In this document: piece after piece, positions 3,846-32,222 of the stretch
Layout: each line of letters begins with the position of its first letter
Position numbering within the stretch: position 1 is the first letter of the stretch
Virus record (IMG/VR): IMGVR_UViG_3300020198_000887
Location: 32,001 to 96,000 of that record
Strand: one strand, 5' to 3'
From: a virus
DNA length: 64,000 nt
Made by a program: the position numbers and the translations under genes
The notes under the pieces: generated by a model
Told to the model about the DNA's origin: nothing
Seen by the model: only the letters and a program-made list of their open reading frames with translations
Databases searched by the model: none

Positions 3846-3861
3846 TTACAAGGAGATTATT

Positions 3862-4224
3862 ATGACAATGAAACAACCACAAAGAGGTGTTTATCGTTCT
3901 CTTAGGGGAAAAGAAGTAGACATGACTAAATTAATTAACCAAAACGAATTAACTGTTGCGGTTGGTAACGTTAAAGTGAATGCACGAGGTGATGAAATAG
4001 GACCAGGTGGGAGAATTATCCGGAAAGAAGAAGACATTGTCACTGCCGCACGTGGGCAAAATGCATCTGGGTACCAACAGCCAGTGATTAATGAGCAACT
4101 TCAACAATCGGTGACCCCGCCAGAATCACCATCATCAAAAACAGCAGGACCCACCCAGCAAAAACCACAAATGAAACAAAATGTTAAAGATATTTCAAAA
4201 ATGGATCCAGCAGGTGATGAATGA
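3862..4224 (+). CDS. Hypothetical protein
   Basis: AGGAG RBS; 'VGNVKVNARGDEIGPGGRII' followed by a low-complexity tail. Confidence 0.7.
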   Translation: MTMKQPQRGVYRSLRGKEVDMTKLINQNELTVAVGNVKVNARGDEIGPGGRIIRKEEDIVTAARGQNASGYQQPVINEQLQQSVTPPESPSSKTAGPTQQKPQMKQNVKDISKMDPAGDE

Positions 4225-9489: not shown

Positions 9490-10065
9490 ATGTCAAGAGA
9501 AAATTACAACAATATGACATCAGCAGAAAAAGCAGGTGAAGACTTTATGTCAAAAAATTGGAGACCAATGATGGCAATGACATACATGTTAACATGTTTG
9601 TTTGATTTTATTATTGGACCTATCCTTTATAATATATTACAATTCTATAATCCAGGACAACATTTAGATATGTGGCAACCATTAACTTTACAGGGCGGTG
9701 GATTGTATCACATTGCAATGGGGGTTGTATTAGGTATTACTGCACACGGAAGAACACAAGAAAAAATAAATGGGGCAGATGGTTCACTAGTCTCTAGTTT
9801 TACTAATGTAATATCACGTCAACATAATAGCCAACCAGTAGCACCAATTCAAGCTGCCCAAAATTTCCCAGCAGCAACCCACGGATTCACTCAAGAACCG
9901 ACAGTAAGTGCTAATAAATTTGGAAACGTTGTTCCACAACCAGTAGCACCAATTCAAGCTGCCCAAAATTTCCCAGCAGCAACCCACGGATTCACTCAAG
10001 AACCGACAGTAAGTGCTAATAAATTTGGAAACGTTGTTCCACAACCAGAAGAACCGATTCTATAA
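9490..10065 (+). CDS. Holin-like membrane protein
   Basis: WRPMMAMTY...TM...GGLYHIAMGVVLGITAHGRTQEK resembles 3TM/GTA-type holins; located in the lysis cassette. Confidence 0.6.
   Translation: MSRENYNNMTSAEKAGEDFMSKNWRPMMAMTYMLTCLFDFIIGPILYNILQFYNPGQHLDMWQPLTLQGGGLYHIAMGVVLGITAHGRTQEKINGADGSLVSSFTNVISRQHNSQPVAPIQAAQNFPAATHGFTQEPTVSANKFGNVVPQPVAPIQAAQNFPAATHGFTQEPTVSANKFGNVVPQPEEPIL
9832..10048 (+). repeat. Perfect 105-bp tandem duplication (35 aa)
   Basis: QPVAPIQAAQNFPAATHGFTQEPTVSANKFGNVVP x2; copies start at 9832 and 9937. Confidence 0.95.
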
Positions 10066-10075
10066 GGAGAGTTTT

Positions 10076-10333
10076 ATGAAATTTTTAACATTATTACTTG
10101 TATTTTTTGTATCAACACCAATTATTGCGGCGGAATGTGCCCCACCCGTTGATAAAATTACCGAAGAAAAAGCAGTTCCTGCTAAGAAAAAGCACAAAAA
10201 ATATAAAGGAACAATAATTCCATCTGAAGTAAAAAAAGTTGAACAAAAAGTAGCAGCACCAGTTGTTGAAGCACCTGCCAAGAAAAAACACAAAAAATAC
10301 GAAGGAACTAAAATCCCTGACGTAAAAAAATAA
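10076..10333 (+). CDS. Small exported Lys-rich protein
   Basis: GGAG RBS, signal peptide MKFLTLLLVFFVSTPIIA, duplicated PAKKKHKKY(K/E)GT motif. Confidence 0.65.
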   Translation: MKFLTLLLVFFVSTPIIAAECAPPVDKITEEKAVPAKKKHKKYKGTIIPSEVKKVEQKVAAPVVEAPAKKKHKKYEGTKIPDVKK

Positions 10334-10403: not shown

Positions 10404-11243
10404 ATGACTGATTACTATACAACCCTAGGCGTTGACAAACACGCAACGCAAACTGAGATAAAAAAAGCATATAGACGATTGGCGAATACCCACCACCCAG
10501 ATAAAGGTGGTGATCAATCCAAATTCAAGGATATATCGGTTGCATATGATACACTTGGCGATCCTGAAAAAAGGTCGCACTATGATAGCCGACAATCAAA
10601 TGACTCAGCTGGATTTACCACTCATCACTTCCGTGACTTCCATGACATATTTGGGCACCATTTTGGTGGGAACCCATTTTTTAATGATGCATTTAGACGA
10701 CAACACGTTCAAAAAAACAGGGACTTAAATCTACAGTGCACTATTTCACTGGGTGATTCGTTCTCGGGGAAACAATTAGAAGCAAAATACACGTTACCAA
10801 GTGGAAAACCACAAAGTGTGATAATTAATGTTCCTGCGGGAGTAAAACATGGTGATAATATAAAATATCCTGGACTTGGTGATGATTCAATATCAAACAT
10901 ACATCGCGGTGATTTGAATGTAACTATTTTAGTATCGGCAGATGAAAAATTTGACAGACGTGGTGATGATCTGTACACTACGGTTGAAATTAACGCAATT
11001 GAAGCAATGATTGGGTGTAAAAAACAAATAAAATCCATTACAGGGGAATCAATGATTATTGACATCAGAGCTGGGATCGAACCTGGTGCAGAATTCGCGA
11101 ATAATGGTGCTGGATTCAAAAATTTACAATCCCATCAAGTAGGTAGATTTGTATCAGTAATTAAAATAGTACCACATGCAATAACTAATCCAGAAATAGT
11201 TGATAAACTACGACAAATTTTAACACAAATCAATTCTCAATAA
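10404..11243 (+). CDS. dnaJ: DnaJ/CbpA-type J-domain chaperone (no zinc finger)
   Basis: DYYTTLGV...HPD J-domain, G/F-rich linker, C-terminal GDL substrate domain. Confidence 0.9.
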   Translation: MTDYYTTLGVDKHATQTEIKKAYRRLANTHHPDKGGDQSKFKDISVAYDTLGDPEKRSHYDSRQSNDSAGFTTHHFRDFHDIFGHHFGGNPFFNDAFRRQHVQKNRDLNLQCTISLGDSFSGKQLEAKYTLPSGKPQSVIINVPAGVKHGDNIKYPGLGDDSISNIHRGDLNVTILVSADEKFDRRGDDLYTTVEINAIEAMIGCKKQIKSITGESMIIDIRAGIEPGAEFANNGAGFKNLQSHQVGRFVSVIKIVPHAITNPEIVDKLRQILTQINSQ

Positions 11244-11259
11244 CAATACAGGAAATATA

Positions 11260-12819
11260 ATGGTAGAGCCAAGTAACGAACTAGAAGAAGTTTTCAGTAA
11301 AGCTGCAGATACCGTAAAAAAACTACACCATGAATATATAACAATAGAACATGTATTGTTCGCTATGTTATCAAACCAAAGGTTTGTTGATATAATTAAT
11401 AATTTCGGTTCAAACGCAGAAGACTTACGAAAACTGGTTACAAACCACTTGCAAACTAAATGCGAGGACATTACGACCACCGAACAAGTTACCCACCCAA
11501 AGAAAACAGCCGCGTTTGAACGGCTGCTAAATAAAGCATTTACACAAGTAATTTTTAATAATCGACAACGTGTGGAAATCACTGATGCCTTTTTAATGAT
11601 GTTAAATGAAAAACGTAGTTGGGCATTTTTCTACATTTCACAAGTTGGTATTGAAAAAGAAAAATTTGCTGATTATTTAAATACAACAGCAGATGCGGCC
11701 GATGAAGAAGCCCCAGATGAGCTTGACCCCCGCCACATTAAATCGTTACAAGCATATACAACTGACCTCAACGACCAAGTGTTGAAAGGAAAAATAGACC
11801 CAGTGATTGGACGAGTTGATGAACTTGAAAATATCGCATTGGCACTTGGTCGCCGATCTAAAAACAACGTGATTTTAGTTGGGGACCCAGGTGTTGGTAA
11901 AACTGCGATTGCAGAAGGTCTTGCATACAATATTGTAAATGGTGGAGTTCCAGATTTTTTGAAAGATTATACTGTTTATAATTTAGATATATCGGCAATG
12001 CTTGCCGGAACAAAATATCGGGGTGATTTTGAAGAACGCTTTAAACAAGTAATTAAAGCACTTGATAAAAAAGGAAAAACAGTTCTTTTTATTGATGAAG
12101 CACATATGATCAGTGGTGCAGGTGCATCGGCAAGTTCAGCAAATGACCTTGCTAATATGATGAAACCTGCACTAAGCAAGGGTAATATTAAAGTCATTGC
12201 ATCAACTACTTGGGAAGAATATCGCAAACACTTTGAAAAAGATCGCGCATTAATGCGTCGATTCCAACGTATTACGGTCGATGAACCATCACAAGAAATG
12301 ACTTTAAAAATCTTAAAAGGATTAAAAAAATATTATGAATCACATCATAATGTAAAAATTAAAACTGATGCATTGCAATCTTCAATAAAATTGTCAGTAA
12401 AATATCAAGCTGATAAAAAACTGCCAGATAAAGCAATTGATTTAATTGATTGTGCCTGTTCACGATTCAATTTAAAATTGGCGGATGACCGAATTATTAC
12501 AGAACGTGAAATTCAATATGAATTAGCGAAAATGATTAATATTCCAGAAGAACAAATTATGGAAACTGAGAGTAATACATTAGTCGATTTGCAAGAAAAA
12601 CTTGAAGCAGATGTTTACGGTCAAGATGCTGCGTTAACTGAAGTGGTTGATAAAATTATAGTTGCACAAGCCGGGTTAAAACCAGATAATAAACCAATCG
12701 GGTCTTTTGTATTTATGGGTCCAACCGGCTGTGGTAAATGTTTAAGTTACGATCAAGAAATAACTTTACAAATTCCCCAAGATATGTACAATTTTGCTAT
12801 CAAAAATAACTTAATTTAG
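11260..12819 (+). CDS. clpA: ClpA-like Hsp100, N-terminal half fused to a 26-aa N-intein
   Basis: Clp N-domain, AAA1 (GDPGVGKT, FIDEAH), no M-domain; ends GPTGCGK|CLSYDQEITL... Confidence 0.9.
   Translation: MVEPSNELEEVFSKAADTVKKLHHEYITIEHVLFAMLSNQRFVDIINNFGSNAEDLRKLVTNHLQTKCEDITTTEQVTHPKKTAAFERLLNKAFTQVIFNNRQRVEITDAFLMMLNEKRSWAFFYISQVGIEKEKFADYLNTTADAADEEAPDELDPRHIKSLQAYTTDLNDQVLKGKIDPVIGRVDELENIALALGRRSKNNVILVGDPGVGKTAIAEGLAYNIVNGGVPDFLKDYTVYNLDISAMLAGTKYRGDFEERFKQVIKALDKKGKTVLFIDEAHMISGAGASASSANDLANMMKPALSKGNIKVIASTTWEEYRKHFEKDRALMRRFQRITVDEPSQEMTLKILKGLKKYYESHHNVKIKTDALQSSIKLSVKYQADKKLPDKAIDLIDCACSRFNLKLADDRIITEREIQYELAKMINIPEEQIMETESNTLVDLQEKLEADVYGQDAALTEVVDKIIVAQAGLKPDNKPIGSFVFMGPTGCGKCLSYDQEITLQIPQDMYNFAIKNNLI
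12739..12816 (+). mobile_element. Atypically short split-intein N-fragment (26 aa)
   Basis: Block A CLSYDQEI starts exactly where the Walker A Thr should be; followed by TAG TAA. Confidence 0.85.
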
Positions 12820-12849
12820 TAAAATGTTCTAAAATTACAAGAGGTCTAT

Positions 12850-13260
12850 ATGATTACAACTACAATACCAATTGGTAAATTTTTTACAATACTTGAACAA
12901 TATGAAAAACTTCATTTTGAACCAGAACAAGAACAATTTTTAAATTCAACGGTTAGAATTCCGGATGAGAATGGTAATTGGATCCAAGTTACTGCTGCTA
13001 TCACAAAACAGGACGATGGATTGTCAATTAAATTTAATAATGGTGATGAAATTAAGGCGGCCCGTAAACATTTAGTGTATGATGGGAATTCATGTGTATT
13101 TCTTGAATCGTTAAACATAGGAGACCATATTCAGAAAGCAACAGGTGAAATTATAGAAGTTGTATCAATTGACACAATTTCTGATAAGACTTTTTTTGAT
13201 TTGACCGTGGATTCGGATACACATTTATATCAAACAAGTAATAAAATTATACACCATAAT
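12850..13260 (+). mobile_element. Long split-intein C-fragment (137 aa)
   Basis: Block B-like ARKH, LNIGD, block F FFDLTV, block G HHN with Thr+1; own GAGG RBS. Confidence 0.88.
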
Positions 13261-14043
13261 ACGGAAACTGCAAAAGCATTGGCAAAACACCTTGGTTCTA
13301 CCCTGGTACGATTTGATATGTCCGAATACCAAGAAAAACATAGTGTTAGTAAACTAATCGGTTCACCACCAGGTTATGTTGGGTTTGAAGAAAATGCTGG
13401 GTTGTTGATTACACAAATTCAAGAACACCCAAACGCAGTATTGTTGTTAGATGAAGTTGAAAAAGCACATCCTGATGTTGCAACAGTGTTATTACAAGTA
13501 ATGGATAATGGATTTATTACTGGGTCAAATGGAAAGAGGGCGGATTGTCGTAATATCGTATTAATTTTAACAACCAATGCTGGTGCACAATCCGCTGAAA
13601 AAAATGCAATTGGTTTTGGTAAACAAGATAAGGATTATTCGGATGAAGATTTGAAAAAATTCTTTACGCCAGAATTTAGAAATAGATTAGATGGTATTAT
13701 CACATTTAATAAACTTGGAAAAGACTCAATGACAAAGGTAGTTAACAAATTTATTGATGAACTACGCGAACAAGTAAAGGAAAAATCAATACGTATAAAA
13801 ATAACAAAGGATGCATCTAACTGGTTGTTAGAAAATGGGATTGACCCAAAAATGGGTGCCAGACCACTGCAGCGTGTTATTGATAAAGAAATTAAGCGAA
13901 ATCTTGCTAAAATGATGTTGTTTGGTGATTTAAAAAATGGTGGCATACTAACAATTGGTGTTGACAACGATAATATTTCACTGACAGCTGCATCAAACAA
14001 TATTAAAACAATCTCGTCAGAAGACATTGAAATGGTTATGTAA
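12850..14043 (+). CDS. clpA: ClpA-like Hsp100, C-terminal half preceded by a 137-aa C-intein
   Basis: ...HHN|TETAKALA, RFDMSEYQEKHSVSKLIGSPPGYVG, LLDEVEKAH, IGF loop, GARPL. Confidence 0.9.
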   Translation: MITTTIPIGKFFTILEQYEKLHFEPEQEQFLNSTVRIPDENGNWIQVTAAITKQDDGLSIKFNNGDEIKAARKHLVYDGNSCVFLESLNIGDHIQKATGEIIEVVSIDTISDKTFFDLTVDSDTHLYQTSNKIIHHNTETAKALAKHLGSTLVRFDMSEYQEKHSVSKLIGSPPGYVGFEENAGLLITQIQEHPNAVLLLDEVEKAHPDVATVLLQVMDNGFITGSNGKRADCRNIVLILTTNAGAQSAEKNAIGFGKQDKDYSDEDLKKFFTPEFRNRLDGIITFNKLGKDSMTKVVNKFIDELREQVKEKSIRIKITKDASNWLLENGIDPKMGARPLQRVIDKEIKRNLAKMMLFGDLKNGGILTIGVDNDNISLTAASNNIKTISSEDIEMVM

Positions 14044-31733: not shown

Positions 31734-32222
31734 ATGACCGATATCATTACAAATGAAATTGCATCTGGTACACGAGATAAAAAACCTGGACATAAACATC
31801 AATTATCAACTGTTCCGTCTTTTCTTGATAAATTAAATATCAGAGGAAAATACGAAAATCATAAATTAGCAAAAGCATGGGCTTGGCGAAACTATGACCA
31901 CGGGGAAGTATTTGCCAATTCATTAGAAGTTGAAAATATTACATTTAATCAAAATATTTTTATTGAAGATACGACAGACCTTTATGCAAAACTTATCCGA
32001 ATTGGATTTGTCGAGCAAACTGGGTTTCCCGATGAACATCTTTTTAAAAGTTTTTCGCGTGCTATGTATCATAAAAAGCATAATATTACAATTACATTGT
32101 ATCAATCAAAATATAAAAATGCGATTGATGTTGCATATAAAATTATGATGAAAACTGAAACAACTGGAGATACGGCAATGGCAATTTTTGTATCTGCAAT
32201 TGCCGTATTAATAGCCAACTAA
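31734..32222 (+). CDS. Hypothetical protein
   Basis: 162 aa ORF with RBS. Confidence 0.55.
   Translation: MTDIITNEIASGTRDKKPGHKHQLSTVPSFLDKLNIRGKYENHKLAKAWAWRNYDHGEVFANSLEVENITFNQNIFIEDTTDLYAKLIRIGFVEQTGFPDEHLFKSFSRAMYHKKHNITITLYQSKYKNAIDVAYKIMMKTETTGDTAMAIFVSAIAVLIAN

Follow-up and report, generated by a model that had tools for sequence, protein, structure and literature searches.

A probable naturally split intein with a 26-residue N-terminal fragment, seated in the D2 Walker A motif of a phage ClpA-like unfoldase

Known split inteins with a short N-terminal fragment (IntN) have an IntN of 15-37 residues (PMC13014065). AceL-TerL and GOS-TerL combine an IntN of 25 and 37 residues, respectively, with a long C-terminal fragment (IntC) (Thiel 2014; Bachmann & Mootz 2015, as cited in PMC13014065 and PMC11766414), and VidaL (PDB entry 6vgv; 16-residue IntN) and PolB16 OarG (8cpn/8cpo; 15-residue IntN; PMC10189870) are natural, atypically split inteins as well. 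In the fractured genes described earlier (Dassa 2009, PMC2677866), a phage gene occurs in two pieces that each bear half of an intein and are separated by a free-standing gene for an endonuclease, and a case without the endonuclease is mentioned in the introduction of that paper (PMC2677866). As to other proteostasis proteins, inteins are known, for instance in the chloroplast ClpP (PMC4760082), and our literature search found no paper describing an intein in ClpA, ClpB or ClpX. Here we analyse a stretch of 64,000 nucleotides of viral DNA, positions 32,001 to 96,000 of the IMG/VR virus record IMGVR_UViG_3300020198_000887 (hereafter the window), in which the gene for a ClpA-like unfoldase is carried by two open reading frames (ORFs) with intein-like sequence on either side of the break. 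The locus shares the short IntN and long IntC of the TerL inteins, and the natural, atypical split of VidaL and PolB16. We consider it highly likely that the insert is a naturally and atypically split intein of the class-1 type, divided into 26 and 137 residues at the S2 site, and located between the Lys and Thr of the GKT in the Walker A motif of the second ATPase domain (D2) of a phage ClpA-like unfoldase.

Anatomy of the locus and identity of the insert

ORF1 (11260-12819, 519 residues) ends in FMGPTGCGK followed by the 26-residue sequence CLSYDQEITLQIPQDMYNFAIKNNLI, after which come the stop codons TAG (12817-12819) and TAA (12820-12822). ORF2 (12850-14043, 397 residues) opens with an ATG at 12850, preceded by AGAGG at 12840-12844 with a spacing of 5 nucleotides; its N-terminal 137 residues finish in FFDLTVDSDTHLYQTSNKIIHHN, and are followed by TETAKALA. 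From the first stop codon (TAG) of ORF1 to the start of ORF2 there are 30 nucleotides, and the two ORFs share one frame, 11 codons apart, the spacer consisting of the two stop codons and 9 sense codons; the shared frame is an addition to the original prediction. Joining the exteins yields GPTGCGK-TETAKALA, identical to the intact homologue P0160, the junction of which reads GPTGCGKTETAKALA. The original prediction, which was made from the letters of the window, had described this layout, including the separate ribosome-binding site of ORF2 and the restored GPTGCGKT, and the sequence bears it out. The features are as follows.

10404..11243, + strand: DnaJ-like co-chaperone gene directly upstream of ClpA (Pfam DnaJ, E 4.6e-22; DnaJ_C, E 1.6e-26)
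11260..12738, + strand: ClpA N-extein, 493 residues, with Clp_N, AAA D1 plus lid, and the first part of D2 as far as the Walker A sequence GPTGCGK (Pfam, NCBIfam, P0160)
12739..12816, + strand: IntN, 26 residues, from Cys1 (block A, CLSYD...), one beta-strand and the first alpha-helix (sequence, model, relatives)
12817..12849, + strand: in-frame spacer of 33 nucleotides, with TAG TAA, about 22 nucleotides alignable to relatives, and the AGAGG Shine-Dalgarno sequence (sequence, frame)
12850..13260, + strand: IntC, 137 residues, with block B (AARKH), block F (FFDLTVDSDTH) and block G (IIHHN) (motifs, profile, fold)
13261..14043, + strand: ClpA C-extein, 260 residues and stop, from Thr+1 (TETAKALA), with the AAA_2 remainder of D2, the AIGFG loop and D2-small (Pfam, NCBIfam, P0160)

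Because only 30 nucleotides lie between the ORFs and no terminator-like site was found there, they are probably co-transcribed. A promoter-like site (TTTACA-16-TACAAT, 10 of 12 matches) is located inside the IntN, at 12765-12792. Recoding of a stop codon was considered as a cause of the split and ruled out: the tandem consists of two different stops, and in relatives the reading frame ends at this position too.

Both halves of the gene belong to a ClpA-like protein. Pfam finds Clp_N, AAA (D1) and AAA_lid_9 in ORF1, and AAA_2 (E 3.7e-44) and ClpB_D2-small (E 3.4e-24) in ORF2, which also has the AIGFG loop. For both fragments the best NCBIfam model is the ClpA equivalog TIGR02639, of which the N-extein covers positions 2-500 of 734 (535 bits) and the C-extein positions 500-732 (324.7 bits); the two are therefore exactly complementary. 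Every score is below the cut-off of 993, and so is that of the intact P0160 (881.9 bits, in a single stretch from 4 to 732), for which reason we call the protein ClpA-like. The exteins are colinear with intein-less alleles: the N-extein is 84% identical to residues 1-492 of P0160 and the C-extein 90% identical to residues 493-735, without a gap or frameshifts. These Pfam and NCBIfam assignments place the insertion in the D2 Walker A motif of a ClpA-like ATPase, in agreement with the original assignment to the AAA2 ring. A blastn search against phage GenBank brought up no close record, its matches being limited to distant clpA genes that are intact.

The window belongs to a 142-kb record with an estimated completeness of 37%, which implies a jumbo phage. 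The order DnaJ-ClpA is common to the window, the related loci L004, L006 and L010, and the contig of P0011. A ClpP gene is present in the same 142-kb record (G000:C1:12373-12915, about 20 kb before the start of the window; 252 bits, above the cut-off), and with its own ClpP, and a DnaJ directly upstream of ClpA, the phage carries a proteostasis set.

Most of the residues expected of an intein are in place. Cys1 comes directly after GPTGCGK and is invariant in three aligned relatives and in L010, and H74, D117, H125, H135, H136 and N137 of IntC show no variation among seven IntC sequences that stem from three host proteins. Block F, block G and the +1 position read FFDLTV...IIHHN and Thr. Block B has its invariant His (H74), with Ala at the Thr position (A-R-K-H); the original prediction had pointed to this ARKH in place of TxxH, and the A..H pattern turns out to be the consensus of the whole family.

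For the fold, the read-through sequence was modelled, with the stops replaced by Gly and Ser solely for that purpose. Given an alignment of 106 rows (105 relatives), AlphaFold2 (AF2) returns a HINT fold with a predicted local distance difference test (pLDDT) of 96.4 and a predicted template modelling score (pTM) of 0.90. All 40 PDB matches listed by Foldseek (ranks 1-50) are inteins or intein-like BIL domains, with E-values down to 5.7e-8, and the top matches, at E ~1e-7, are the Pyrococcus horikoshii RadA intein 4e2u (template modelling (TM) scores of 0.73/0.75) and VidaL 6vgv (TM 0.69 by query and 0.82 by target, with a root-mean-square deviation of 2.9 A). Sequence searches reach less far. 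IntC had no match in PHROGs, and its profile found only PolB16 among PDB sequences, at an E of 0.14 over blocks F and G, which is not significant; 6vgv was absent at E<=10. On the other hand, Pfam Intein_splicing does recognise 6 of 108 family members at E<=1e-5 (best 5e-15), and through them the window family is linked to inteins by transitive homology. Since curated profiles hardly detect the window sequence itself, its identity is drawn from the motifs, the fold, the predicted association of the fragments and this transitive homology. Taken together, these indicate that the insert is almost certainly an intein of the class-1 type, with a predicted splicing chemistry. The original call of an intein holds up in the HINT fold of the combined fragments as well as in the conserved Cys1, block-B His, block-F Asp, HHN and Thr+1.

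The model places a strand at residues 7-13 and the first alpha-helix at 14-22, with the split after this helix. A complex prediction with the 45-residue tail of ORF1 and the first 142 residues of ORF2 gave an interface score (ipSAE) of 0.77, compared with 0.38 for the highest-scoring of three controls; of 80 solved complexes, 58 attain the mark applied to this score, and of 110 mismatched pairs, 2 do. The runs share at least 84% of contacts, with a partner pLDDT of at least 64. The IntN strand is predicted to sit between IntC residues 2-8 and 33-38, and Cys1 and Lys-1 to contact block B (68-74), block F (113-118) and His135. In the structure prediction that had been proposed as a check, the pieces do pair, and this supports an association of IntN and IntC at the level of a predicted complex.

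The same division recurs in relatives. Four other ClpA C-fragments contain relatives of IntC, with E-values of 1e-49 to 1e-51, and five related ClpA C-fragments begin with a 137-residue IntC (P0002-P0005, 60-65% identical; the L010 gene, 67%). Moreover, in all relatives with upstream DNA (L002, L004, L006 and L010) the ClpA N-fragment ends in a homologous 26-residue IntN, with the stop at the same codon position, and the Shine-Dalgarno sequence and ATG of the window are located exactly at the conserved M-I-T-x-T start common to all split relatives. The ratio of nonsynonymous to synonymous substitution rates (dN/dS) is 0.09-0.26 for IntN and 0.04-0.25 for IntC, and likewise well below 1 for the flanking extein. 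With synonymous sites near saturation, such low values mean that both pieces have been kept by selection over a long divergence. Judged from these sequences, this is a naturally split intein of 26 and 137 residues and not a product of chance; the natural split with a short IntN, as first proposed, is supported by the two ORFs, the separate ribosome-binding site and ATG, and the identical split in four related loci.

An intein family at the P-loop and the gene between its halves

A profile of the seven IntC sequences was searched against 1.84 billion representatives, which resulted in 713 clusters at E<=1e-3 and 151 at E<=1e-10. Among the best 150 of the 713 clusters, the domain is N-terminal, as in the split form, in 124, and internal, as in a contiguous intein, in 26; most of the latter have G-K-C 15-35 residues upstream. 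The +1 residue, scored in 145 family members, is Thr in 113, Ser in 26 and Cys in 4. Hosts were scanned for 108 members and comprise Clp/AAA_2 proteins (21), AAA_5 proteins (17), superfamily 2 (SF2) helicases (10), RecA (8) and terminase (1), as well as PhoH, DnaB, a clamp-loader-like protein and an ABC ATPase. The window intein is a member of this large, predominantly split family, which targets the site between GK and T/S in P-loop ATPases. The original prediction had called short-IntN types rare; this stands for characterised examples, and does not stand for sequence data, in view of the cluster counts above. A search of viral contigs with IntC for related loci gave no match, and no second member of the ClpA intein family was found in the 142-kb record.

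Contiguous alleles exist in Clp genes too: P0011 (919 residues, sample ERZ1426852) has one in a ClpA gene adjoining DnaJ, and P0045 one in the D1 P-loop of a Clp protein. The contiguous alleles P0011, P0012 and P0051 keep a Met exactly where the IntC of split forms starts, a hint that split inteins have in some cases fused again into contiguous ones; with its halves in frame, the window is two stop codons short of a fusion of this kind. At L008 (P0007), the C-fragment of an SF2 helicase opens with an IntC that is related to that of the window (42% identical). Every gene in the 4 kb upstream lies on the other strand and no N-fragment gene was found among them, so the two halves may lie far apart in that genome.

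Two further ORFs upstream of the DnaJ gene drew our attention. In the first, at 9490-10065, a segment of about 35 residues (PQPVAPIQAAQNFPAATHGFTQEPTVSANKFGNVV) is present twice as a perfect tandem repeat, and the second, at 10013-10333, has a signal-peptide-like start and a repeated PAKKKHKKY.GT.IP motif.

Most close homologues of the host gene do without the intein. Out of the 120 best homologues of ORF1, 117 are uninterrupted ClpA proteins of 748-763 residues (74-84% identical), and the N-fragments among these 120 are that of the window itself, P0186 and P0190, the last of which lacks the Walker A region and IntN. Between the window and L004/L006, IntC is 61-64% identical and the exteins 46-51%. 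Furthermore, the exteins of the window show 84-86% identity to alleles that have no intein, but only 75-76% to L010, the closest of the alleles that bear one. This patchy distribution, and an intein that is more conserved than its host, together constitute the signature of a mobile element. Intein-less and contiguous ClpA alleles, a search for which had been suggested with the original prediction, are both present, as 117 of 120 homologues and as P0011.

So what lies between the halves in these relatives? In five of five related ClpA loci, an ORF of 360-372 residues is found there on the opposite strand, with its 3' end overlapping the end of IntN; these ORFs have 49-78% mutual identity. At a PhoH locus (L007), the same 26-residue IntN follows GTGK, and an ORF of 357 residues is located on the same strand; it shares a 64-column module with the ORFs of the ClpA loci (hhalign probability 94.9%). 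L002, L004, L006, L010 and L007 have the layout of fractured genes. The intervening ORF has one PHROG match, with a function unassigned in PHROGs, and by eye its C-terminus displays a Vsr-like D...IEYHGE..H...GW.VYEI pattern. We regard this gene as nuclease-like, and as encoding a putative homing endonuclease.

The window has no such gene in the 30 nucleotides between its ORFs. The first 22 nucleotides past its IntN stop align at offset 0 with L010, L002 and L006, with 16-17 of 22 identical, and the bases of the relatives that match the spacer are the 3' end of the opposite-strand nuclease-like gene. The in-register position of this alignment of about 22 nucleotides is suggestive of a scar, and the likeliest course of events, we infer, is that the window lineage deleted the nuclease-like gene, leaving a stranded split intein. 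In the relatives with the opposite-strand nuclease-like gene, a strong promoter-like site of the sigma-70 type is located just upstream of the IntC ORF (in L010 at 3860-3900, where it is a perfect TTGACA-17-TATAAT, and in L002 at ~1490-1530); the spacer of the window has no equivalent, and the promoter-like site inside its IntN is weaker. All in all, the element is best read as a stranded selfish element and not as a regulatory switch.

Proposed route to ClpA and the readings set against it

The course that we propose is as follows. The two ORFs, probably transcribed together, would be translated separately, after which the IntN strand would insert between two IntC strands, so that the HINT fold is complete. 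Protein trans-splicing would then proceed through Cys1, the His of block B, the Asp of block F, the terminal His-His-Asn and Thr+1, and yield a 753-residue ClpA with an intact D2 P-loop, which could cooperate with the ClpP and DnaJ that the phage encodes. The intein itself would be a selfish mobile element of the P-loop-targeting family, of which relatives keep the free-standing putative homing endonuclease between the halves; the window lineage would have lost the nuclease-like gene, so that the stranded split intein remains. Splicing must persist in such a lineage because the host gene depends on it.

Several points weigh against this account. The evidence for splicing is computational, and the source is a metagenomic assembly, known from assembled sequence alone. 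Block B has an Ala where most inteins carry a Thr. The Pfam Intein_splicing match of the window sequence is weak (E 1.7e-4; 21.9 bits against a cut-off of 35.8), and the N- and C-terminal intein models of NCBIfam had no match. Of the profile search that had been put forward as a check, the six relatives with stronger Pfam matches speak for an intein, while the score of the window sequence below the cut-off and the lack of an NCBIfam match do not. The single-sequence AF2 fold is poor (pLDDT 47.6), so that the good model depends on the alignment, and the complex prediction may pass through its likeness to solved split inteins. As for the intervening ORF, searches of Pfam (with the whole protein and with the C-terminal domain) and of PDB sequences gave no match, and its nuclease identity consists of leads, the look-alikes in the ESM Atlas carrying DUF559 or NUMOD3 at scores of 0.90-0.92. 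The scar alignment, finally, is short, and a free local alignment of the 33-nucleotide spacer with the 1.1-kb inter-fragment region of the relatives is not significant compared with shuffles.

With a metagenomic contig as the source, one could suspect an error of assembly or sequencing, that is, a false stop in a continuous intein-containing ORF. However, two consecutive stops are followed by a proper ribosome-binding site and an ATG, and in related contigs, which stem from other samples, the stop falls on the homologous codon; the recurrence of the split in contigs from different samples makes an assembly artefact very unlikely, and we give this reading a negligible chance. A dead gene would be another way to arrive at two ORFs: a decayed contiguous or split intein, with the ORFs as remnants of a pseudogene and no full-length ClpA made. 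The halves being in frame, with only two stops and 9 sense codons between them, the locus could resemble a contiguous intein such as that of P0011 after nonsense mutation, and the loss of the nuclease gene would fit decay as well. Yet both intein pieces, and the flanking extein with them, have dN/dS values well below 1, the catalytic residues are all intact, the Shine-Dalgarno sequence and ATG stand exactly at the M-I-T-x-T start of split relatives, the stop of ORF1 coincides in position with that of L002, L004, L006 and L010, and the exteins are 84-90% identical to intact ClpA without frameshifts, all of which leaves a dead gene very improbable. Less credible still is that the intein halves serve as a dimerisation handle, with the ClpA fragments acting as a complex in which no splicing takes place. 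It is true that the fragments are predicted to associate, but a HINT domain of 163 residues in the Walker A loop would, from the geometry of the P-loop, block nucleotide binding, and the strict conservation throughout the family of residues needed for chemistry only (Cys1, the terminal Asn, Thr/Ser+1 and the block-B His) would go unexplained.

Could the interruption be of use to the phage? The original prediction suggested a post-translational switch, and one may imagine that conditional trans-splicing, governed by timing, stoichiometry or redox state, has been co-opted to time the activity of ClpA D2, while the N-fragment (N domain and D1) may have a role of its own. From its Walker A sequence, D2 should be unable to bind ATP before the P-loop is rejoined, and with the nuclease gene gone, the intein has still been retained. 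Moreover, a C-G-K-C sequence (Cys-3/Cys1) spans the N-splice junction in the window (12727-12741) and in L010, an arrangement equal to the engineered redox trap of Ssp DnaE and to the natural disulfide of the Pab MoaA intein (PMC3922620). However, the intein is missing from 117 of the 120 closest ClpA homologues, and its persistence can be accounted for equally well by a requirement that excision be precise. Cys-3 is also found in intein-less alleles (GPTGCGKT) and is absent from L002, L004 and L006 (GPTGTGK), and therefore did not evolve for the intein. The presence of the same family in many unrelated ATPases fits the targeting of a site and not a regulation specific to ClpA. With the intein more conserved than its host, and a nuclease-like gene between the halves of relatives, the proposed switch found no support, and we think it unlikely.

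Two more specific ideas, to which we jointly attach a low though not trivial likelihood, deserve mention. The C-G-K-C may be a natural redox trap, by which the ClpA D2 motor is assembled only under reducing conditions; if true, trans-splicing would act here as a conditional switch on a machine of proteostasis. Separately, the window allele may be an intermediate caught on the way from a split to a contiguous intein, with the nuclease-like gene lost and the halves in frame, 11 codons apart; the contiguous P0011 still has a Met at the old start of IntC. The reading that we prefer, at high confidence, is that of a stranded, naturally split intein that still splices.

Significance and comparison with known split inteins

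Split inteins with a short IntN are prized for protein semisynthesis and labelling, and few have been characterised (AceL-TerL, GOS-TerL, VidaL and PolB16). As a tool, the pair from the window would offer Cys1 and Thr+1, an IntN of 26 residues that can be synthesised, native GK and TE extein residues at the junction, and a confident structural model, together with hundreds of natural homologues that can be mined for consensus or orthogonal variants. Biologically, the locus extends fractured genes from enzymes of DNA metabolism to a phage protein-unfolding machine, and shows how one intein family colonises the same P-loop position in many unrelated ATPases. It would also be a clear example of an intein stranded after the loss of the nuclease gene. 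No new mechanism is revealed by these findings; their value is practical, for intein engineering, and the biological surprise is moderate.

The comparison with AceL-TerL and GOS-TerL was made by way of published descriptions. Both are split after the first alpha-helix, at the S2 site (PMC13014065), as in our model of the window intein; all three come from phage or metagenomic sources, and Cys1 is common to AceL-TerL and the window. They differ in host (terminase versus ClpA), in the +1 residue (Cys versus Thr) and in the length of IntC (104-115 versus 137 residues). VidaL and PolB16, in contrast, are split after beta-strand 2 (S1, PMC13014065), whereas the window intein is split after helix alpha1; sequence identity to the window is only 15-16%, and PolB16 has Ser1 and Ser+1.

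The hosts listed for fractured genes are the DNA-metabolism enzymes gp41, IMPDH, DnaE, NrdA/J, ligase and terminase, with no Clp protein among them (PMC2677866). The related ClpA loci differ from them in having the intervening gene on the opposite strand, and the window itself in having no endonuclease gene. The P. horikoshii RadA intein (4e2t/4e2u/2lqm) is the best structural match (TM 0.69-0.75), but it is a contiguous archaeal mini-intein with 15-17% sequence identity to that of the window. We take it to sit in the P-loop of a RecA-family ATPase, and proteins of the RecA family also host 8 of the 108 scanned members of the window intein family.

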